From the sequence record PX880099.1: 64,000 nt of DNA; one strand, 5' to 3'. The first letter of the stretch is position 1, and every line of letters begins with the position of its first letter. The notes under the pieces were generated by a model. It worked only from the letters and a program-made list of their open reading frames with translations, made no database searches and was not told where the DNA came from. The DNA comes from a phage. A program made the translations under genes and the position numbers. Below, piece after piece: positions 858-14,212 of this stretch.

Positions 858-2882
858 ATGAATTTAACAAGACCTAATAGTGCGATAGCCGATCTAGTAG
901 AAGCTACTTATCGAAAACGTCGCAGTTTTGAGGCAGGTTTTACATTACGTAATTCCCGTGAAGTTTTGCTGTTAGCGGCAGAAGGGAATTATTACCAATG
1001 GAAAGGAACTTTTCCTAAAGTAGTTCCAGCAAACTCTACGCCAGCCACCACAGGTGGTATTTCTTCCCTTGCATGGCAAAGTGTTGGGACCGCTGATGAT
1101 ATAGCAATTATCAATGCCAAGTTTACGGCAATGCAGCAACAGATTGATGATCTGTCGGAAACAATACCTGAAGCTGGTAAATCGGCTTATCAGATCGCAC
1201 TTGATAATGGTTTTGTTGGAACAGAAGCACAATGGCTTGCTTCTTTGAAAGGGGATACTGGTGCTCAACTTAATATTAAAGGATCATTAGCAAGCACTAG
1301 TGAACTACCATCTACAGGTAACGTTGCAGGGGATGGTTATATCGTAGGTGATGTGATTTACGCTTGGGATGGTTCTGTTTGGAAACTTATTTCTTCTCTT
1401 GGGCCAGAAGGTAAATCAGCTTATGAGGTATGGTTGGCAGATGGTAATACAGGATCTGTTTATGATTTTCTTACCTCTATAAAAGGTGATAAAGGCGATG
1501 TTGGTCCTACAGGGCCACAGGGAGCACCTGGTGTTAACGCCAACGGTTTTGATTATCGTGGGGATTTGCCTTCTACAAGTAACTTACCACAACCTAACTC
1601 TGAAAACGTAAGCCAAGCTTATTCTATCAATGGTAATCTTTATGTCTCCAATGGGACAGCTTGGGTCAACATGGGTAATATTGTTGGTCCTCAAGGTCCA
1701 CAAGGTGAGGCAGGTAAAGACGGTCTAGATGGAACAGATGGAGATGAAGGGAAATCTGCATATCAAAGTTGGCTGGATGCTGGTAATGAAGGGACAGAAG
1801 TAGATTTTATTGCCTCGCTTAAAGGTCCAAAAGGAGACAAGGGAGAGCAAGGAGAACGAGGACCACAAGGCGAATTAGGTCCACAAGGACCAGTGGGTGC
1901 AACAGGATCAGGTTTAGAGATTATCGGGGTTCTGAACAGCGAAGCTGAACTTCCTCCGACTGGAGAAGTAGGTGATGCATATAAAATTAATAATGATTTG
2001 TATGTTTGGGTTCAAGATGCTACGGAATGGATGAATGTTGGCAGTCTTGGAGGAACATCAATTACAGCTAAAGGTCATGTTCCAAACAGTGAAGCTCTCC
2101 CTGTTTACAATAACTATGGCGATGCCTACTTAACTGAAGACACTAGTAATCTTTACATCTATACCTACGATCAAGACACCAATTCCGCATCTTTTGTTGA
2201 CATGGGAAGTATTAAAGGCGACAAAGGTGAAAAAGGGGATAAAGGAGATAAGGGTGATCCTGGAACAAACGGAACCAACGGTACTGATGGGACCAACGGT
2301 AAGGACGGCGCACAGTGGTTTGTAGCAACAACTAATCCAGTCGCAGGAGACGGTGTTATCAATGATTACGCCTTCAATACTACCACTGGAGCAGTGTTTA
2401 AGAAAACAGATTCTTCTACGTGGACACTTATAGGAACTCTTCCTAGTATACCAGAAGCTCCTCAAGACGGCTTGACGTATGGTCGTTCTGATGGAAACTG
2501 GATCGAAATATCAGGATCAGATCCTACGGAAGCTATAACGCCAACTAGAGTTACAGCAGGTTTCATGGAACTTGAAACAACTACTGCCAACTCTGGAGCA
2601 TCTTGGACTCCTTCTGGAACTTCCAATATGTATGTTGTTACAGTAACTGACGCTCTGACAGTTGGAGCATGGCCTGGTGTCACTGGCTCTACAAAACCTA
2701 AAGCGTTTTCAGCAATGATTTATTTGATTCAAGATACAACGGGACACACGGTTACACTAGATGCGTCTTATGGAGCACTAAATGATACAGAAATAGCAAC
2801 TACTGCTAACGCAGTAACAATTTTGCAATTAACGTATCCTGGTGTGGGTGATATCGTGGACATGGTTGTTGTAACACGATAA
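858..2882 (+). CDS. tail fibre protein with collagen-like Gly-X-Y repeats
   Basis: SD AGGAGA before ATG; several Gly-X-Y runs (e.g. GDKGDVGPTGPQGAPG); thrice-repeated module EGKSAY..WL..G..DF..SLKG. Confidence 0.85.
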   Translation: MNLTRPNSAIADLVEATYRKRRSFEAGFTLRNSREVLLLAAEGNYYQWKGTFPKVVPANSTPATTGGISSLAWQSVGTADDIAIINAKFTAMQQQIDDLSETIPEAGKSAYQIALDNGFVGTEAQWLASLKGDTGAQLNIKGSLASTSELPSTGNVAGDGYIVGDVIYAWDGSVWKLISSLGPEGKSAYEVWLADGNTGSVYDFLTSIKGDKGDVGPTGPQGAPGVNANGFDYRGDLPSTSNLPQPNSENVSQAYSINGNLYVSNGTAWVNMGNIVGPQGPQGEAGKDGLDGTDGDEGKSAYQSWLDAGNEGTEVDFIASLKGPKGDKGEQGERGPQGELGPQGPVGATGSGLEIIGVLNSEAELPPTGEVGDAYKINNDLYVWVQDATEWMNVGSLGGTSITAKGHVPNSEALPVYNNYGDAYLTEDTSNLYIYTYDQDTNSASFVDMGSIKGDKGEKGDKGDKGDPGTNGTNGTDGTNGKDGAQWFVATTNPVAGDGVINDYAFNTTTGAVFKKTDSSTWTLIGTLPSIPEAPQDGLTYGRSDGNWIEISGSDPTEAITPTRVTAGFMELETTTANSGASWTPSGTSNMYVVTVTDALTVGAWPGVTGSTKPKAFSAMIYLIQDTTGHTVTLDASYGALNDTEIATTANAVTILQLTYPGVGDIVDMVVVTR

Positions 2883-2923: not shown

Positions 2924-5599
2924 ATGTTTCCAATTCCAATATTTACTATTATGACCAGCACTGGTGTCGTTCCTCTGCCAGCAGGTATTGTTAAAAAAGT
3001 AATCACTTTAGATTACCCAGACAATGCTGGTAATTCTAACAGCAGTTTAGCAATTTTGCTTAATGATGGTAGATTGTTTACTCAAGGCGCAAACCTTTTT
3101 GGTGAGATTGCAGATGGAACTCGTAGTGCACGATTCAATAACTTCCACTTAGCTTCTACTGTAGTAGCGGATGTGTTTACCGCAGATCGTTGTTTTGTTA
3201 TTAAAACTAACAGTGGGGGATGGCAATATTCAGGATTGACAGCAGGATTGGTAGGATCTATAGCAGCAGGTGGTACGGACGCATGTGTAACTACTTGGAC
3301 CAGCTTTCCATCTGTAATAACAGGGACTATCTCTTTAGCCAATCTTAAAGAGGTTAAGGGAGGATATAACAACACTCTCTGGTTAATGAATAGTGGTGTT
3401 CTTTATGGATCAGGTCAAAACACAGTAGGTAGTTTAGGTGCAAGTACTACTAACGAAGTTTCTACTCCTCGTCAGATAACAAGTGCAGCAGTTGCTTTTG
3501 ATGCAGGTTACAACCAATGCTCTTATGTCAACAATGTGGGAACCTTGCGTGTTTGTGGAGCTAGTAAAGGTTTAGCAGGTAATAATAACACAACAACAGC
3601 TTTTGTCAATGCCAAGATATCCGCTACTGAAACAGTGTATGTCAAAGATTACATCAATACAGTTTCCCAGACAATAGTTGTAGGAGATACCTCCGGTGGC
3701 ACGGGTACAGTAAACTACTTATATGTTAGATCTAATACAGAAACAACCTACACTAAACTGGATACCTTTGCAGCAGGTTTCTCAACATGGAAGTTTCCAC
3801 CAAGCCGCCACTCTTTTTTCGTTGGGATCAATAATTCCTTGTGGGCTATTGGTAAGAACTACACTGCAAACTTAGGTTTGGGGTATGATTCTGCGAGCGG
3901 AGATCCACTCCAAGTGGGAAAACCAGTTAAACCTGAAGGAGTGGGTTCTTGGGATATAAACAAGCTCACAAGCGTTCATACGCTGAATATGGATGTTACT
4001 AACCAATTAGGTTATCAAGGAACCTTTTTCGTTTATAATGGAGATATGTATTATTCCGGTATTTGGAAAGATGGGAAAGCCTCGTATCTGTTCAATAGTG
4101 GTCTAAACTATAATAAATTCACACCAATAGCAAGCTCCGTGATTACGGGTGATATTCTGGCAACTGGCTTAACTACAGATTCTTTAGGAATTTGTATTGT
4201 AGGCGGAACTAAACAGTTGACACATTCTGTTAGCCCAGAAGGAGGTAAACTTTTCAATATTAAATACACTTCTTCTGCCCCTGCAAACATGACAATATCA
4301 TCTACTGGTTTAATGACTTTCCATGCAGAAGGTGGTTTTGATGCAGGTATGACAGCCTTAAACGCTGAAGGAACAACTTTATCAGATACCTCTGGAGGAT
4401 ATGCTTCAACATTGAGCGTTTACACTCCTAGCTTATCTGCAATGGATGTAGGAACAACACAAACAATGGTAGCAGAAATAACGCCAACAGGGGCAGCAAG
4501 CTTACCTGGTATGGTTGTTGAGTATTTCTCTAATGACCCTACGGTAGCAACAGTTGACCCCGTTACAGGCGTTATTACAGCAGTTGCTGATGGGGATTGT
4601 CGTATCGGTTGTAGAGCAACTTATCAAGGTGTGGTAACTGCCGAAGATAGTTCTTATCTCGCAGTGAATGCTGTGGTGATTGTGATGGACTATGATTTGA
4701 CGCAAGAAACTATTCCGGCGGATGTAAAGGTCAACAGGAGTAACCGTTATGCCAGGGCTTCTGGAGATATCCTTGTACCTACGGAGAGTTCTGCTCCCGT
4801 AGCACCTTTAGAATATGTTGGTACAACTCCACAAGGTAGACGTGTTGTAGCAGCCAACCGTACACATATCTTTATCAACAACAACTTGACAACAGCTTCC
4901 CCGTGGTTGAAGACGAACTTGACAGTCACGGCATCAACAATCAACTCTCCGGTTGGAACTACGGCTAACACTTACAAGTTAACACCTTCTACAACTTCAG
5001 GACAACATATTTTATCAGCAGTGAATACAGCTTCTGATATTACAGCAGGTAAGCACTGGGCGGCATCCGTATTCTTGAAGCCAGACGGGATCACTAAAGT
5101 GAAACTCAAATTGACTTCAGGAGATGAGATTAACGAAGGGACTTATGATCTTGTAGCTGGAACATTTACAGGTGCAGATGCAAACATAATCGATATGGGG
5201 AATGGTTGGTATCGTGTAATTCTACACAAAGTGACAGTTGCCAAACAAGCATCTATAACCTATGAGATTATAGCTTTGAATGCAAGTGGATCAGACACTT
5301 TCGCAGGAGATGGTACGGCAGGTCTTATTGCTTGGGTTCCACAGCTTGAGATGGGTGATATGACAAATCCAGTTTGGGCGGGGACACCATTTGTTTGTTC
5401 TTATGCACGAGACACTACCAGTGCTGTTACCTTCACTATTCCTAAGAATGGACATACTGGCGTGGACATTTACCACACTGATGGTACTGTGCAACGAGAG
5501 GTCTTCACTGGTACAGCTACAACTTGGATGTTGACGTTCACCGCCGCAAGTGCGGATTGGGGATCGAAGTTCATTACAGGTTTGAAATATTACGACTAA
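2924..5599 (+). CDS. large tail fibre or tail spike protein with Ig-like (Big_2-type) domain
   Basis: SD GGAGGG; 891 aa; Gly/Ser/Thr-rich repeats; motif SNDPTVATVDPVTGVITAVADG typical of bacterial Ig-like group 2 domains. Confidence 0.8.
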   Translation: MFPIPIFTIMTSTGVVPLPAGIVKKVITLDYPDNAGNSNSSLAILLNDGRLFTQGANLFGEIADGTRSARFNNFHLASTVVADVFTADRCFVIKTNSGGWQYSGLTAGLVGSIAAGGTDACVTTWTSFPSVITGTISLANLKEVKGGYNNTLWLMNSGVLYGSGQNTVGSLGASTTNEVSTPRQITSAAVAFDAGYNQCSYVNNVGTLRVCGASKGLAGNNNTTTAFVNAKISATETVYVKDYINTVSQTIVVGDTSGGTGTVNYLYVRSNTETTYTKLDTFAAGFSTWKFPPSRHSFFVGINNSLWAIGKNYTANLGLGYDSASGDPLQVGKPVKPEGVGSWDINKLTSVHTLNMDVTNQLGYQGTFFVYNGDMYYSGIWKDGKASYLFNSGLNYNKFTPIASSVITGDILATGLTTDSLGICIVGGTKQLTHSVSPEGGKLFNIKYTSSAPANMTISSTGLMTFHAEGGFDAGMTALNAEGTTLSDTSGGYASTLSVYTPSLSAMDVGTTQTMVAEITPTGAASLPGMVVEYFSNDPTVATVDPVTGVITAVADGDCRIGCRATYQGVVTAEDSSYLAVNAVVIVMDYDLTQETIPADVKVNRSNRYARASGDILVPTESSAPVAPLEYVGTTPQGRRVVAANRTHIFINNNLTTASPWLKTNLTVTASTINSPVGTTANTYKLTPSTTSGQHILSAVNTASDITAGKHWAASVFLKPDGITKVKLKLTSGDEINEGTYDLVAGTFTGADANIIDMGNGWYRVILHKVTVAKQASITYEIIALNASGSDTFAGDGTAGLIAWVPQLEMGDMTNPVWAGTPFVCSYARDTTSAVTFTIPKNGHTGVDIYHTDGTVQREVFTGTATTWMLTFTAASADWGSKFITGLKYYD

Positions 5600-5638
5600 T
5601 AAAAAAGGGAACCCGCAAAGGTTCCCTTTTCTTTTATA
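5598..5638. terminator. bidirectional rho-independent terminator between convergent genes
   Basis: AAGGGAACC-cgcaa-AGGTTCCCTT hairpin flanked by A-run upstream and T-run downstream; sits between + strand stop at 5599 and - strand stop at 5663. Confidence 0.7.
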
Positions 5639-5662
5639 AAAACTCTTTATAAATCAATAAGA

Positions 5663-6544
5663 TCAGAATGGAATATCATCATCGAAGTCCATTGGAGGTT
5701 CTTCTTGATTACTTGGTTCTGGTTGTGGTTCAGGTTTCTTCTCTTCTTTCTTCTCTTCTTTCTTAGGTTGTTCTGCGGAACCACGAATGGCAGCAGCAAC
5801 TTTATCAGACAGAGCCAGAACTTTACGAGCAGAGTCGATCAGATCTTCTACAGATACAGTCTTAATGGTATGGTCTTTACAAGCATTGAGGATAGCGTGA
5901 CCAACAGATGCCCCAAGATCATAATCATTAATATCAACACCACGAGATTCAGCAATTTCCGATTTCAGCGTGACAGTTGCAGATTGAACAACCCCAGCGA
6001 TATCGAAAGCATCGCCTTTAACACCATTACGAATCAGTTCCAGTGCACCATTTACTGCGTGACCAGTTTCCAGACCTACAGTATCACGTTTTTTATAGGA
6101 TTGCTTAGGAGCAGCATCGTTGGAACCCTTATTGCCAGAAGATTTGTTAGACTTCTGAACACCATCGGTAGACAATACTGTAATACGAGATTTTTTAGTA
6201 TTGTAGTAAGTTTTACCGCCTTTATTATCAACGCGATCAATATCAATACTTACTTCTACACCTTTTTCAATAGTGATCCAGTTATCACCTTCTTTGACTT
6301 GCAGGTTTTCATAACCTTCTTTCAGTTCAATGTCACCAAGAGAAATCCAAACACCTTTCTCATCTGGTTTAGCACCTTTCTCTTTCAGAACAAGAGAAGC
6401 TCGGTGAGTTGAAACAATCGTTTTTCCTTCCCAATGAAAAGTTTTAGGTTCAGCGAATTTATCCAGTTTAACGTAGTCTACGATACCAGTTGCATAAGTT
6501 ACGGTTTTGCCTTTACGATCAGTTTCAGTATTAATTACGGACAT
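5663..6544 (-). CDS. putative ssDNA-binding or replication protein with SSB-type C-terminal tip
   Basis: C-terminus EPPMDFDDDIPF matches the E. coli SSB C-terminal tip as I recall it; Lys/Glu/Pro-rich linker precedes it; N-terminal fold not recognised. Confidence 0.65.
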   Translation of the reverse strand: MSVINTETDRKGKTVTYATGIVDYVKLDKFAEPKTFHWEGKTIVSTHRASLVLKEKGAKPDEKGVWISLGDIELKEGYENLQVKEGDNWITIEKGVEVSIDIDRVDNKGGKTYYNTKKSRITVLSTDGVQKSNKSSGNKGSNDAAPKQSYKKRDTVGLETGHAVNGALELIRNGVKGDAFDIAGVVQSATVTLKSEIAESRGVDINDYDLGASVGHAILNACKDHTIKTVSVEDLIDSARKVLALSDKVAAAIRGSAEQPKKEEKKEEKKPEPQPEPSNQEEPPMDFDDDIPF

Positions 6545-6560
6545 TATTATCTCCTCTACA

Positions 6561-6953
6561 TTACATTAATTTTGCACAGAAAGAGCGGAGTCTTTCCATA
6601 TCATCTTGCTCTAACAGGTATTTACCTTTACCTATTCCAACTCCAATTTCACCATTAGGAAAATGAACTATTTGCACTGGGAAACCTCCGAGTTTAATTG
6701 TGGCAGCTTTGCCTTCTTCGTCTATAACGTTTCGGATTGTATCTTGCAGTGAAATGAATTCTTTGTTTGTAACAGTGGTTTCAATTATTTCAGATGTTTC
6801 AACACGAGCAGTTAGCTTCTTGTTTCCACCTTGAATAACCAAAATTTGAAAATAAAAAGAGTTGTCAAGACCTACAACATTTTTCTCAACTAGTGTCAAA
6901 CTGGTATAGTTTCCATAAACAGTTTCAACAGCTATCTTAGAACGTTCAGTCAT
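6561..6953 (-). CDS. hypothetical protein
   Basis: 130 aa ORF in co-oriented replication block; no family recognised. Confidence 0.5.
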   Translation of the reverse strand: MTERSKIAVETVYGNYTSLTLVEKNVVGLDNSFYFQILVIQGGNKKLTARVETSEIIETTVTNKEFISLQDTIRNVIDEEGKAATIKLGGFPVQIVHFPNGEIGVGIGKGKYLLEQDDMERLRSFCAKLM

Positions 6954-6998
6954 TGAATGCTATCCTATCATAAAATGTTTAATATTGTCAAGCTTTAA

Positions 6999-7595
6999 TT
7001 ACCAAGGAATATCATCTTCTTCTTCCGATTTGGTATCTACTTGAGGTGGACGTGGAACCTTAACCTCTTTAACAAAGCGAAGATATGGGAAACGCGTAGC
7101 GATTTTAATAACATGTTTGGCATCTTCTCTAACATCTTTGTGCAAGAAGCAGATCCCTGTTTCCAAAGTTGTTTCAAAATCTTTAGAGTAATAACAATCC
7201 TTTCCATCAAATGCAGCCTGGCAGATGGACAGATCAAACTCATTCAGAAAGGTTGTCATTACATTTGGGTCCATAATCATAAGGTTGCAAAGCTGACCAT
7301 CACGTTCAAATTCAAAAACGTGTTTAAGACCAGTAACACCCTCGTAGTTATCAGAAGCCTCTTTGTTTCCTAGTTTACGAATATTAGTTCCCATCAAAGC
7401 AGATGCAATCAAGTCTTGTATTTGCTCTTCTGATCGATGTGCAGGAAGAGACGTGTAAAAATCCAGATCACGTCCAGCAATATCAAGAATACGCCAATCA
7501 CGAACAGCACCGCCAGCCAAGACAGAATTAGGATCAGCGATCTTTAATACAGTAAGAATTTCTTTGGCAATATTGATTTGTTTTGATTTAGTCAT
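6999..7595 (-). CDS. putative Pol-beta-superfamily nucleotidyltransferase with SSB-tip-like acidic tail
   Basis: GGAVRD..DLDF motif resembles CCA-adding/poly(A) polymerase head domain; C-terminus EEEDDIPW resembles the SSB tip. Confidence 0.5.
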   Translation of the reverse strand: MTKSKQINIAKEILTVLKIADPNSVLAGGAVRDWRILDIAGRDLDFYTSLPAHRSEEQIQDLIASALMGTNIRKLGNKEASDNYEGVTGLKHVFEFERDGQLCNLMIMDPNVMTTFLNEFDLSICQAAFDGKDCYYSKDFETTLETGICFLHKDVREDAKHVIKIATRFPYLRFVKEVKVPRPPQVDTKSEEEDDIPW

Positions 7596-8223: not shown

Positions 8224-10815
8224 CTAGTGACAGGACGCCCAGGAGTTACCCACATCATATCCGGCAGTAAGCTGAACGTTAAGATTGTAAAATTCTCCAG
8301 CCTTAGTAACAGCTAAAGCAGCAAGTTCACCTGCCCGACTATAGGCTGTAAACCATCCACCTTTGGGAGATTCATGAATGTTAGCCCAAATTTGCCCTGT
8401 CTCTTTTTCCTTATTATGCTTCCATTCTTCGACTTTAGCAAGGCATTCTTTATCAATTTTCTTTTGTTCTTCAGGATCGTCTACTTTTTTCCAACCTAAT
8501 GATTCGGGTGAAAACCATTTAAATTCTACAAGGTTACGAGAAACTTCAAGCTGGGCTTCATCGTGATATGCAATCATTTGTTGTACGAAGTCTTTATTCT
8601 TCCAGTCATCTTTAAAGAAGTCAACACTTAGTCCTTCTTCTTCGATCATATCATCATAAATAACCATTGCACGTTTAGCACAGATAACCCCACCGCTTTG
8701 GAACAGAGAGTTAAGAATCGCATGAGCAGAACGAGTAGGAACCTTACGACCGTCAATACCCAAAACATATTGTTTACCAGTCTTAACCCAGAAATCGTTT
8801 AAACGTTCTTTAAGACGCGCCAATGGGAATGCAGCTTCCCAGAAAGCATCGAACACCAATTGACCTGTAAACTTATCGCTACCAATTGTTTTAGCAACCT
8901 TGTCGGCTTGTGCACCATAGGTAATACCATACTTAACAGATTTAGCAGGACTACGTTCAAATTTACGTCCAATAGTTTCAGTGATACGTTTTGCCATCAT
9001 TGTGTGAACATCATTAGGTTTCTCTAACAACAGAGCGTTACAATATTCGTGTGGCTCCGGCTCGTATCGCCAACAGTAGTGTGATTCAATTTTTGCTTCC
9101 AAAGAGTCGAAGTCGTAGCCAATCTGGAAGTATTTAGGAACCTCTACACCAAACAAGTTACGCATCTCCCATCCAAACAAAGATGTGACACGAGGAATAT
9201 TAGCTACAGACCTATGCTTCATACGAGAGGTTGCAGCATCACATGTAGCGGCTGGTGTAGGAATACGCCCATCCGCCCTTACTGCGGCTAAGAAACCTTT
9301 ATCATATTCTTGGTCTTCTTCATCTTCTTCCCAATCAGCACCACCACCTAAAATAGAGTTCCTACGATGCTTATACGTTAAGTATTCTACAATCTGTGTA
9401 GCATAAGGGAATTTCTCACCCAAAGCTTGCAGGTTAGGACAGATTTCTTTTTCCTGACCTTTGGTAAAACATGGGTTAGTCAATACTTTAAGACCGCGAC
9501 CTTTTGCTATACGCTCTTGAATCTTCCTTTCCAAGGTTTCCGGTGTGCACTCCAGATGATCACAACGGTCCTGACAAAAATTAGAAGATAAAGTTTGCTC
9601 AACGTAAGCTCGAATACCTTTCTGAAGTTCTTCCTCGCTCTTTTTAATCTTGGTGCCAGATTTAAGAGTCAAATCTTTATCTTTATATTCCGATGGTACC
9701 CAACCTAATCCTACAAGCCAGTTTTTAATATGGGTTGTATCGTTTAATGTTGCAGGGATGTGAGGATCACATAAAGGCTCATCTGCTGCAACTGGCAGTT
9801 TCCACTCTTTCCCCAACATAACTAACCACCAATCTCCATCCCTCTCTTCCAAATGACCATCATGTTTCTTAGCAAAATTGATCATATGGTTAGTTGGTTC
9901 TAAGTTCTTTTTAATTTGCAACTTAGGTGGAATAAAAGCTTTAAGATAACCTTTTGTTGCTGGTTTAGGTGGCAAAATAGGCTCAACGAGTAAACGAAGA
10001 CGCTCCATTTCTGCATCCAAAAAAGCAAGGTTCTCTTCTGCTTGCTTCATGTTAAAAGCAAACCCACGGTGTTCCTGGCGCGTGATAATGTCTGCTACAC
10101 GTTGTTCAAGTTCAAATGGACCTTCCCATTTATCATAATCACCCCATTCTTCCATGAGGTAATTATATACACTTGTGTTGGCTTTGTTATCATAGATACA
10201 GTAATAAAGCATATCCGCAGCAAAAGTCTTAAATCGATCTTCTTCTGGAATCTCTTTACGGAAATCTATTTTTACATCACCGCCTGCTTTTCGAGAAAGT
10301 GCTGCCAAGCTATGTCCTGATTTGCCCTCAATCTTTCGATCTGGGTTTAACACTTTACTCAAAATCAAAGAGTCAATAAGTTTTACCTTATTTTTGCCCC
10401 ACGTGTTATATTTAACACTGTAATCTAATCCATAAAACAGTTTTGTAGCCAACCAGTCATAGTTGATACCGTTGTGTGCCACAGCCATTTCAACCAAATA
10501 TTCAGGCTTGTCTTTAAAATAACCTTCATGATTAATAAAGTCTGGGAAATCTTTTAATTGAAAATGTGTGTAATCTTGCGCCACATATTCTTTAAGAACA
10601 TACGTGTATTTACCATCTGATTCTTCATAAGGACGCCCGTCAAAAATATACTTAGGGCCATCGTGGAAAGCTACTATCTCTCCTGTTTCATGGTTCTCTA
10701 AGACAATACAGTGCATTTGAAATGTGTCTTTGAGACGATAAGGGCTAGCTAAATAATCGATAGTGTCATTATTCAACAATCCGTTTGCTTCAATATCCCA
10801 TGTAAACTTACTCAC
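8224..10815 (-). CDS. DNA polymerase, family A (PolI/T7-like) with 3'-5' exonuclease domain
   Basis: 863 aa; N-terminal WDIEANGL exo-like motif; GYDFDSLEAKI (motif A-like); KSVKYGITYG (motif B); YHDE (motif C). Confidence 0.9.
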   Translation of the reverse strand: MSKFTWDIEANGLLNNDTIDYLASPYRLKDTFQMHCIVLENHETGEIVAFHDGPKYIFDGRPYEESDGKYTYVLKEYVAQDYTHFQLKDFPDFINHEGYFKDKPEYLVEMAVAHNGINYDWLATKLFYGLDYSVKYNTWGKNKVKLIDSLILSKVLNPDRKIEGKSGHSLAALSRKAGGDVKIDFRKEIPEEDRFKTFAADMLYYCIYDNKANTSVYNYLMEEWGDYDKWEGPFELEQRVADIITRQEHRGFAFNMKQAEENLAFLDAEMERLRLLVEPILPPKPATKGYLKAFIPPKLQIKKNLEPTNHMINFAKKHDGHLEERDGDWWLVMLGKEWKLPVAADEPLCDPHIPATLNDTTHIKNWLVGLGWVPSEYKDKDLTLKSGTKIKKSEEELQKGIRAYVEQTLSSNFCQDRCDHLECTPETLERKIQERIAKGRGLKVLTNPCFTKGQEKEICPNLQALGEKFPYATQIVEYLTYKHRRNSILGGGADWEEDEEDQEYDKGFLAAVRADGRIPTPAATCDAATSRMKHRSVANIPRVTSLFGWEMRNLFGVEVPKYFQIGYDFDSLEAKIESHYCWRYEPEPHEYCNALLLEKPNDVHTMMAKRITETIGRKFERSPAKSVKYGITYGAQADKVAKTIGSDKFTGQLVFDAFWEAAFPLARLKERLNDFWVKTGKQYVLGIDGRKVPTRSAHAILNSLFQSGGVICAKRAMVIYDDMIEEEGLSVDFFKDDWKNKDFVQQMIAYHDEAQLEVSRNLVEFKWFSPESLGWKKVDDPEEQKKIDKECLAKVEEWKHNKEKETGQIWANIHESPKGGWFTAYSRAGELAALAVTKAGEFYNLNVQLTAGYDVGNSWASCH

Positions 10816-12111: not shown

Positions 12112-12146
12112 ACAGGTATTTTTAATAAAAGGGCCGAAGCCCTTAG
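12112..12146 (-). terminator. rho-independent terminator
   Basis: AAGGGC-cgaa-GCCCTT hairpin overlapping the helicase stop, followed on - strand by TTTTATTAAAAA. Confidence 0.55.
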
Positions 12147-13921
12147 TAGTTGCTATCCGTAGGTAAGTTAGCAGGGTTGTTAAAATACTGCTCTTTGTCG
12201 TGAAGAGTTGCAGTTCTAATGTCATAGTAAAACTGCCCTGCTGGACCAGTCTCCGAGAACTCACGGTTTTTTAGGATAAAGCAATGAGTTGTATTACGTT
12301 CTACAGGATCTTCAGCAGCCTTATCTCGTTCCAAAGCCAAGGTAATACCAGCACCTTTAGCCAAGAAACTACTACCCATTGCATCGTCCTCTGTTAAGTG
12401 CTCATTGCCACCGTTAGCTGACTTCTTAACGTGTGAGATGACGATAATAGTTATAGCATACTCTTTCATGATTCGCTTCAACCATGTTGCTAACTCTTCC
12501 TGGGCTTGAACATCCATACCAGAAAGCAAATCAGAATAAGGGTCGATAACAAGAATTGTTACTCCAAAATAGATGATCATCTCCAAAACTTTTTCTTTGA
12601 TAGACTCCACATCTGCTCCACGATCATCACACACGTAAAAACGTGGTGATCCATCTTCTCTTTCGTAAAAATCTAGGATTTTTTCTTTATTCTCTTCCAA
12701 GATTTGAAATTTCTCTTCCGGTGTTTTCCTGTGTAGAGGAATGTGTAGGAAAGAGGATAACAGGTTACGAGAATACTTTTTATAAGTCGCTTCCAAGGAC
12801 AGAATACCTAGGGTATGTTCTGGGTGTGCAACAATAATATGTTTGGTGATCTCGTTCACCATCAAAGTTTTACCGATACTGGTCTTTGCCAGGATGACTG
12901 TAATCTCTTCCTCTACTAAACCACCACCCAACATGTTTGCAGCAACACGCATAAAAGGAGGCAAGGTAATCATCTTGGATTCCAAGCATTCCAATGCAGC
13001 TTCATACAAGACATTAGAAGCATAAACACCTGCGGGAGTGTATAGACGAGCACTCCAAAAAGCTTTTACGAAATCCTTTGCACGACCTTCTTCCAGATAC
13101 TGATTGGCATCCTTAAGATCCATCTGCATACGGTAGACTTTGTTACGAGGTAACACCTTAACAATATTTTCAAATGCCTCATTACCTGCTTTGTCGTTAT
13201 CCATGCAAACAATAATCTTCTTAAATTTTTCAAAGAAAGGATATTGTGCCTGAACTTGTTTATACATACTGGTTTCACCAGTTGTGCCACTTACTACGGC
13301 TGGAAGCTCATATTTACTGTCCAAGTTTTCAGATAGCATTTGATAAGCTGCCAGAGCATCGTGTTCACCACCTGTAATTACAACAGTATGAGAACGATCT
13401 GCAAAACGAATTTGTCCAAAAAGATCTACATCTTTACCTACTTGACCAATAGGTTTACTGAAATCTTTAGGATGAATACGACGCTTAAAACCGACCAATT
13501 CTTTACCGATGGTAGTTGGATATAAACAACTTTCTACTACCATCTGATCCCCTTCCTGACGGTATTCATAACGAACACCATAGAAAGATGAAACTTTTTC
13601 TTTAATGCCTCGATAACCACGTGGGTTGGTTGATGTTTCTTGAACAATTTTACGATGAATCTGTTTATTAAATTCCGAACCCACAATCTCCTCCTCTTCT
13701 TCTAAAACTTCACCATTTTCTCGTAACCATTCTACGCTAGGAATAGTGTATTCACACGCAAAGCACTTAGCACCTTTATGCTCTCCATTAGAATCTAATC
13801 CGTAAACCATCAGGTTATTACGAGAGCGATCCTTGCCATTTTTCATGCAGCGCGGACAACCTGTATGTCCTTCCTTGCTAAGATCAACATCAAATCCATA
13901 TTTAGTTATAATGTGCGACAC
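12143..13921 (-). CDS. bifunctional primase-helicase (T7 gp4-like: zinc finger, TOPRIM, DnaB-type helicase)
   Basis: N-terminal CPRC..CFAC zinc-binding motif; C-terminal Walker A AKTSIGKT and Walker B-like VLVIDPYSD. Confidence 0.85.
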   Translation of the reverse strand: MSHIITKYGFDVDLSKEGHTGCPRCMKNGKDRSRNNLMVYGLDSNGEHKGAKCFACEYTIPSVEWLRENGEVLEEEEEIVGSEFNKQIHRKIVQETSTNPRGYRGIKEKVSSFYGVRYEYRQEGDQMVVESCLYPTTIGKELVGFKRRIHPKDFSKPIGQVGKDVDLFGQIRFADRSHTVVITGGEHDALAAYQMLSENLDSKYELPAVVSGTTGETSMYKQVQAQYPFFEKFKKIIVCMDNDKAGNEAFENIVKVLPRNKVYRMQMDLKDANQYLEEGRAKDFVKAFWSARLYTPAGVYASNVLYEAALECLESKMITLPPFMRVAANMLGGGLVEEEITVILAKTSIGKTLMVNEITKHIIVAHPEHTLGILSLEATYKKYSRNLLSSFLHIPLHRKTPEEKFQILEENKEKILDFYEREDGSPRFYVCDDRGADVESIKEKVLEMIIYFGVTILVIDPYSDLLSGMDVQAQEELATWLKRIMKEYAITIIVISHVKKSANGGNEHLTEDDAMGSSFLAKGAGITLALERDKAAEDPVERNTTHCFILKNREFSETGPAGQFYYDIRTATLHDKEQYFNNPANLPTDSNY

Positions 13922-13933
13922 TTTGTTCTCCTG

Positions 13934-14212
13934 TTAAAATGGTTCGTTAGTCTCCATCATATATTCTGCTTCTAGTTCTTCCATGTGCTTTCTAAATTGG
14001 AAAGCAATTTCTGCTACAGTTACATTTAAATCTTTTTCAAAAACTTCTGTAGATCCTTCATAAAAACGAATACCGTCAATTAAAAGCCCTCCGTGGTAAT
14101 CCCAATCGCTTTCACGAGAAAGTGGATTAGGTTCTTCATAATAGTAATCCACCTCCACGACCAAGGCTTTCCCGTTACGAGTGGTGTATTCAAAATCAAA
14201 AGTGTTAATCAT
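13934..14212 (-). CDS. hypothetical protein
   Basis: 92 aa; ATGA-type overlap with downstream gene. Confidence 0.5.
   Translation of the reverse strand: MINTFDFEYTTRNGKALVVEVDYYYEEPNPLSRESDWDYHGGLLIDGIRFYEGSTEVFEKDLNVTVAEIAFQFRKHMEELEAEYMMETNEPF

Follow-up and report, generated by a model that had tools for sequence, protein, structure and literature searches.

A phage-encoded SSB-like protein with a host-type C-terminal tip and a nearby nucleotidyltransferase carrying a related tip in an Escherichia phage

The 64,000-nucleotide (nt) stretch of phage DNA analysed here (sequence record PX880099.1; the whole stretch is called the window) contains two nearby minus-strand genes whose products end in the acidic docking peptide typical of SSB, the bacterial protein that binds single-stranded DNA. 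One gene (5663..6544) encodes an SSB-like protein of 293 amino acids (aa) and is the last gene of a leftward replication operon; the other (6999..7595) encodes a 198-aa stand-alone class II nucleotidyltransferase (NTase) head. In bacteria, the SSB C-terminal (SSB-Ct) tip serves as a hub through which more than 12 replication, repair and recombination proteins find single-stranded DNA (ssDNA). We favour, with moderate confidence, the explanation that the 293-aa protein is a replicative SSB of the phage with a genuine host-type tip and that the NTase is tethered by its terminal DDIPW to the same receptor or receptors; we infer both the ssDNA binding and the tip-receptor binding. The two proteins probably dock on the same partner proteins.

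The C-terminus of the 293-aa protein reads ...PEPSNQEEPPMDFDDDIPF. Its last 12 residues, EPPMDFDDDIPF (5666..5701, minus strand), were identical at 12/12 positions to the ends of the SSBs of both E. coli (PDB 1eqq sequence) and K. pneumoniae (7f2n), which bears out the original observation of an SSB-type end. When the phage genome was searched with E. coli SSB by tblastn, the sole match was nt 5701-5666 (12/12 residues, E=1e-4). The stop codon TGA (5663-5665) directly follows the tip, so its alpha-carboxylate is free. The NTase reads ...DTKSEEEDDIPW at its C-terminus, and the open reading frame (ORF) translation confirmed that it closes with the acidic tip EEEDDIPW (7002..7025, minus strand), again at a free C-terminus. 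The SSB tip is thus D-D-D-I-P-F and the NTase tip E-E-E-D-D-I-P-W, with Trp replacing the canonical Phe. Both share the position at the extreme C-terminus, the penultimate proline, the terminal aromatic residue, the acidic run and the predicted flexibility of SSB-Ct-type ends, and both tails are predicted to be disordered (predicted local distance difference test, pLDDT, < 50).

Such ends are rare. The window has 656 stop-to-stop ORFs that reach 40 aa or more, and only two of them, those of the SSB and the NTase, had at least four acidic residues among the last nine together with a terminal aromatic residue. The rest of the near-identical phage Schickermooser (~90 kb; loci L003 and L004) contained none. 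From the amino-acid composition of the window, 0.0018 ends with acidic residues at two of three positions followed by I-P-[FW] are expected by chance per 280 proteins. We also looked for DNA evidence that the tail had been captured recently from E. coli ssb and rejected this idea: identity to plasmid ssb genes was only 81% over 52 nt (E=0.1), a value that by a rough estimate corresponds to independent codon choice for the same peptide and therefore leaves recent transfer unsupported.

The 293-aa protein matched PHROG 4477 ('unknown function') with E=5e-97, and a search of 5.8 billion proteins returned 103 homologous cluster representatives, down to 28% identity, almost all from phage contigs of ~85-155 kb. 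Almost all 103 end in D-F-D-D-D-[IVL]-P-F; when 44 members of the family were aligned, residues D288, D290, P292 and F293 were each kept in 90% or more of them, and several lineages carry PSNEPPMDFDDDIPF, which is identical to E. coli SSB over 15/15 residues. Prediction by AlphaFold2 with the family alignment (mean pLDDT 80) divided the protein into four parts. An N-terminal all-beta domain (residues 1-130; 6155..6544, minus strand) is predicted to be OB-fold-like (oligonucleotide/oligosaccharide-binding) and is the presumed ssDNA-binding module; some family members have a second small beta-barrel insert, typical of multi-OB SSBs. A disordered stretch (residues 132-150) leads to a four-helix domain (residues 156-253; 5786..6079, minus strand), for which no informative structural match was found. 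The disordered tail (residues 254-293, with pLDDT < 50 across 260-288) begins with a K/E/P-rich linker (residues 254-281; 5702..5785, minus strand; pLDDT < 50 with the family alignment) that is hypervariable in length and sequence among homologues. The protein therefore has the canonical SSB arrangement of a disordered linker followed by ...DDDIPF at a free C-terminus. As a separate observation, the four-helix domain contains two similar, near-invariant GHA-x-N-x-A-like motifs, GHAVNGA and (G)ASVGHAILNA, which suggests an internal duplication.

Sequence comparison linked only the tail to known SSBs. The 293-aa protein had no Pfam domain and no PF00436 match, and the SSB models of NCBIfam and PHROG aligned to residues 245-293 only (~45 residues). 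A profile of the N-terminal domain retrieved no SSB from the PDB, its comparison with E. coli SSB by hhalign gave a probability of 0.2% and thus no sequence link for this domain, and a BFVD fold search returned uncharacterised phage proteins only. Some GenBank records nevertheless annotate the protein as 'SSB', and no canonical SSB was found in the phage genome, since E. coli SSB matched only the 12-residue tail by tblastn. Given the OB-like domain, the position at the end of the operon, the lack of another SSB in the genome and the family-wide tip, the 293-aa protein most plausibly serves the phage as its own SSB, belonging to a non-canonical, phage-specific family with predicted ssDNA binding. 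The description of both ends as 'SSB tip mimics' therefore stands in part: the same kind of docking peptide is present on both tails, but 'mimic' does not suit a protein that is probably itself the SSB of the phage.

The 198-aa protein (PHROG 10174/1614) carries the catalytic signature GGAVRDW...DLDF (residues 28-46; 7458..7514, minus strand), which corresponds to motif A of class II CCA/poly(A) NTases (GG-x-VRD ... D-x-D), with GGAVRDW at 28-34 and DLDF at 43-46. In an alignment of 13 NTase homologues, G28, G29, A30, V31, R32, D33, W34, D43, L44, D45 and F46 were invariant. The match to PF01743 was below threshold (15.2 bits over residues 26-71, against a cut-off of 23), and the best family member reached 21.3 bits. 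The predicted model has the class II head-domain fold and consists of the head and a short helical part only, with none of the neck, body and tail domains through which tRNA or RNA is bound. Motif A and the head-domain fold uphold the earlier assignment of the protein as a nucleotidyltransferase; it is a minimal stand-alone class II (CCA/poly(A)-type) NTase head with predicted activity. A profile search of 1.84 billion representatives found ~1,000 relatives, mostly phage proteins of 175-230 aa.

The tip of the NTase is conserved among its closest homologues. At 58% identity or more, 9/10 homologues have D-D-I-P-W, the exception (P0106) ending in D-S-F-P-W, and the ~15 residues before DDIPW are variable in the same proteins. 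Two more distant proteins have the DDIPW end as well, P0119 at 33% identity with the synteny retained and P0222 at 26% identity in another genomic context, and ends in DDGIPF and KPIPF occur in two further clusters of the family. That DDIPW is nearly invariant next to residues that vary, and that it reappears at 26-33% identity, points to selection acting on the tip itself, and these sequences indicate that the tip is an add-on which is selected yet optional. The presence of a conserved, recurrent SSB-type tip on an NTase is the unusual part of the present system, and it extends the known principle of the 'acidic docking tail'. No paper on SSB-Ct mimics on phage enzymes or on the Phapecoctavirus SSB, and none containing 'APIGLQY' (see below), was found in the literature searched.

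Over the 2.1 kb around both genes, the window shares 97-99% nt identity with over 60 Phapecoctavirus phages of Escherichia, and it is itself assigned to this genus of phAPEC8-like coliphages. Members of this genus (Stephanstirmvirinae; phAPEC8, ESCO13, Schickermooser) are ~150-kb myoviruses. The enterobacterial-type tail, which had been taken as a clue to the host, pointed in the right direction but is redundant, because the coliphage assignment stands independently on this nt identity. The two tip genes had also been described as adjacent, which needs correction: a 130-aa ORF (6561..6953, minus strand; PHROG 16560, unknown function) separates them, and they are near neighbours. The gene order is primase/helicase, Pol A, small genes, NTase (where present), ~130-aa gene, SSB gene and terminator, and the operon converges on tail-fibre genes; this order, with the SSB gene last, is kept in relatives down to ~30% identity. 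In the window, Pol A is encoded at 8224-10815 and the primase/helicase at 12143-13921. An intrinsic-terminator-like hairpin read from the sequence (GGGAACC...GGTTCCC followed by a T run; 5601..5630, minus strand) lies between the SSB gene and a convergent 891-aa tail-fibre-like gene (2924..5599, plus strand), and the records of Schickermooser and phAPEC8 annotate a terminator at the matching site. The 130-aa gene lies between the NTase and SSB genes in all examined NTase-carrying relatives, and homologues occupy the equivalent position in L005, L006, L013 and L014. Its product had no matches in Pfam, NCBIfam or the PDB and is a candidate partner of both tip-bearing proteins.

Not all members of the SSB family end at the tip. 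About 15 of the 103 representatives run 14-17 residues beyond ...IPF, e.g. APIGLQYGRNFLHCF, with the pattern ...DDDIPF-A-P-[IV]-G-L-Q-Y-x3-[LIF]-x2-[MICF]. Capped ends lie at L001:4880-4933, L010:3900-3948, L011:4117-4161 and L012:3925-3975, as well as in L015-L061 and among P0264-P0383. The cap occurs both in the 293-aa family and in canonical PF00436 SSBs, especially those of Vibrio and Photobacterium. A degenerate DNA pattern for PFAP[IV]GLQY identified 47 loci in IMG/VR, most of which encode canonical OB-fold SSBs on ~40-56-kb contigs and end in ...EPPMDFDDDIPF-APIGLQYPALLNCM, and at least 43 of the 120 closest relatives of one capped SSB have the extension (SSBs of Vibrio and Photobacterium prophages, plasmids and phages). 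A megablast search of E. coli genomes with the 3' end of one extended Vibrio-type SSB gene gave no match. The cap leaves the tip Phe without its free carboxylate.

Four capped loci were read. In three of them the SSB gene is directly followed by a gene for an HNH endonuclease that has a zinc finger at its N-terminus, and the fourth (L010) keeps only the first codons of this gene. These genes (CxxC...CxxC zinc finger plus HNH) are found at L001:4905-5399, L011:4171-4713 and L012:3968-4396, and also in L046, L055, L056 and L058; an HNH gene lies downstream in only some of the 47 IMG/VR loci. The presence of one HNH family downstream of capped SSB genes from two unrelated SSB families would fit a homing element for which the conserved DNA encoding the tip serves as target or homology arm. 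The HNH site is empty in the window, and its SSB gene is uncapped. The codons of the cap motif differ mainly at third positions; as these differences are mostly synonymous, the cap peptide itself is under selection. We therefore rejected the idea that the cap is a mere HNH footprint as the sole explanation, since most extended SSBs have no downstream HNH gene and the peptide is conserved synonymously.

To look for further tips, ORF ends were scanned in loci carrying the 293-aa SSB family. In L007 the primase-helicase (4637-6412) ends in EEYDEEPIF and the SSB in DFDSDCPF; in L009 a 159-aa protein weakly similar to replication initiators (999-1478, minus strand) ends in EDESDLPF beside an SSB ending in DDEMLPF; and in L063 a 357-aa protein (413-1486) ends in DDFDDF beside an NTase ending in SNDIPW. 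In the window itself, a 92-aa ORF just upstream of the primase/helicase gene (13934..14212, minus strand) ends in ...EAEYMMETNEPF (ETNEPF), and its homologue in L005 ends in ...ELEYVIEGNDYF (EGNDYF). This weak tip-like end may be a third docking tail.

In the explanation that we favour, the OB-like domain, like the SSBs of E. coli and of phages, would coat the ssDNA of the phage fork, and the flexible tail would present the tip (acidic run, proline, terminal aromatic residue and free carboxylate) to proteins with an SSB-tip pocket. Since the last 12 residues are identical to those of the host SSB (15/15 in some relatives), the phage SSB could plug phage ssDNA into the host SSB interactome, and its tip possibly also engages proteins of the phage replisome. 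The NTase, lacking the body and tail domains that hold the substrate, would use its tip as a tether instead. This would place the enzyme at sites of replication or repair or let it compete with SSB there, and the task of the docked NTase could be the extension or repair of 3' ends, a reaction on RNA or tRNA, or counter-defence in the manner of Gad2, a phage protein discussed below.

Both proteins resemble known systems in part. The 293-aa protein follows the domain plan of E. coli SSB (PF00436), with a predicted OB-like domain, a disordered linker and an acidic -IPF tip with a free carboxylate, the last 12 residues being identical; it differs in that its DNA-binding domain has no detectable sequence homology, in its extra four-helix domain and in its K/E/P-rich rather than G/Q/P-rich linker. 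Phage and plasmid SSBs with SSB-type tips are already known, and the tip is found here in an uncharacterised fold family. In phage HK620, the last six residues of the SSB (NDYPPF, similar to DDDIPF) recruit the phage protein Sak4 (PMC5928155), the product of a neighbouring gene; that SSB has a canonical OB fold, however, and its neighbour reads the tip, whereas the neighbour here carries one. Compared with class II NTases such as the CCA-adding enzyme, bacterial poly(A) polymerase and stand-alone heads (PDB 2la3), the window NTase is small (~198 aa), has no RNA-binding body or tail domains, falls below the PF01743 threshold and has a C-terminal SSB-type tip.

Several observations weigh against a shared docking function of the two tips. 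About 90% of the NTase family representatives have no tip at all, and the NTases of close relatives (Klebsiella phage, Justusliebigvirus) end in LDEAWDECF, LDNAWDDL or SEEFKI; such other acidic ends mean that the tip is not essential to the NTase family. The NTase tip ends in Trp instead of Phe, and SSB-tip pockets are not known to accept Trp. Furthermore, in Justusliebigvirus (L013, Escherichia phage EmilieFrey, Bas61; 3453-4067 and 4526-5473) the SSB tip is capped by a 15-aa extension (…DDDIPFAPIGLQYGRNFLHCF) and the NTase ends in …NSEEFKI with no IPW, so that both free tips are absent together and at least one related genus can do without a free tip.

The identity of the receptor bears on the choice between the favoured explanation and internal wiring of the phage replisome, in which both tips would be read by a phage protein (Pol A, the primase/helicase or the 130-aa protein) and would organise the phage's own machinery. 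We regard this as possible, though it is the less probable of the two. The tails of T7 gp2.5 and gp4 reportedly use the same polymerase patches, according to the Richardson laboratory. The tail of gp2.5, the T7 SSB, docks on a basic patch of the polymerase gp5, and the tail peptide DTDF of gp4, the helicase-primase, was seen bound to gp5 (PMC12339929). T7 thus offers two replication proteins of one phage with similar acidic, aromatic-ended tails that dock on a common receptor, and the tip-like ends on several replication proteins of related phages, including the primase-helicase of L007 and the initiator-like protein of L009, recall gp4 and gp2.5. In addition, all tip-bearing genes lie within the replication operon, and the phage has genes of its own for a polymerase, a primase-helicase, a ligase and exonucleases. 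In T7, however, the receptor is the phage polymerase and the tails are unlike the host SSB tip, whereas the tail here is host-identical; moreover, the second carrier here is a nucleotidyltransferase, for which no precedent was found. An internal contact would be free to drift, yet the tail is identical to that of the host over 12-15 residues, including PSN/EPP outside DDDIPF. This identity suggests that the likely receptors include host SSB partners, if they are not all of that kind, while by analogy the T7-like spread of tips over replisome proteins favours a phage receptor. The two kinds of receptor are not mutually exclusive, internal wiring is compatible with the favoured explanation, and a phage-encoded receptor fits the data equally well as recruitment or hijacking of host SSB partners, which had been proposed originally.

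The remaining explanations are unlikely to different degrees. Gad2, a phage protein in which a nucleotidyltransferase domain is predicted, defeats the Gabija defence through a mechanism not yet known (10.1101/2023.05.01.538930), and the NTase could be a Gad2-like anti-defence protein whose tip mimic blocks SSB-docking host nucleases and helicases or brings the enzyme to them for modification or another form of neutralisation. Precomputed matches to PF26128 ('Gad2') exist on homologues of the window NTase (unmarked for L010, weak or faint for L005, L012, L062, L063 and L064, and listed for P0112), and arms-race features typically show the kind of patchy, recurrent distribution seen for the tip. 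However, a local copy of Pfam gave no PF26128 match for the NTase family, so the Gad2 label was not reproduced, and when 50,697 phage records were searched by tblastn with P0183, a family member of 400 aa, and with the window NTase, the matches listed included no Bacillus or SPbeta-type phage. The SPbetaL7 Gad2, from Bacillus phages, is also twice as long (400 aa against 198 aa), and the NTase gene lies in a replication operon rather than an anti-defence island. Kinship with Gad2 is thus a lead suggested by sequence that could not be reproduced or extended, and we consider an anti-defence role unlikely; nor do we know of a link between Gabija and the SSB tip. Less probable again is a more elaborate form of this idea, in which the SSB tip is a portable address label, a Gad2-like NTase would find SSB-docking host proteins (exonuclease I, RecQ, Gabija-type complexes) and neutralise them enzymatically, and the APIGLQY cap would switch the tip off or re-address it. 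It is also improbable, to a greater degree, that the NTase simply repairs CCA ends of tRNA or polyadenylates RNA, with DDIPW incidental and no docking. The class II CCA/poly(A) fold and motif, the 10 tRNA genes, RNA ligase and PseT-like kinase of the phage and the GenBank annotators' label 'tRNA nucleotidyl transferase / poly(A) polymerase' would suit such an enzyme, but the tRNA-binding body and tail domains are missing (198 against ~400 aa), and DDIPW is near-invariant by a variable segment, recurs at 26-33% identity and has a chance expectation of ~0.002 per genome. The least probable explanation is that the 293-aa protein is not an SSB but a tip-bearing decoy that titrates host SSB partners. 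It has no sequence similarity to known SSB families outside the tail and its OB-like call comes solely from the predicted model, which suits a decoy; against this, the genome has no other SSB candidate, the place in the replication operon is conserved across distant phages, and the second beta-barrel insert of some members is typical of multi-OB SSBs.

If the favoured explanation is right, a host-exact tip on an unrelated SSB fold family shows how strongly the SSB hub constrains phage evolution. The analysis also defines an uncharacterised SSB family present in many ~150-kb myoviruses, several of which are used in E. coli and Klebsiella phage therapy. The recurring tip on a non-SSB enzyme suggests a transferable localisation signal used by phages, and the tips offer a testable handle on the targets of a widespread, possibly Gad2-related NTase family and on the dependence of large lytic phages on host SSB partners.

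The Pol A region upstream in the operon varies among relatives. The Pol A gene is much longer in some (1189 or 1099 aa, compared with 863 aa for the window gene) and split into two pieces in KP2025, and variants of the region were found at L001:1-1740 and 1768-2364, L062:2285-5584, L014:1-2858 and L013:2869-3465. Between Pol A and the NTase there is in addition a further gene of ~198 aa in these relatives, annotated as 'AP2 domain-containing protein' in KP2025, which may encode a homing endonuclease. None of these mobile insertions is present in the window.

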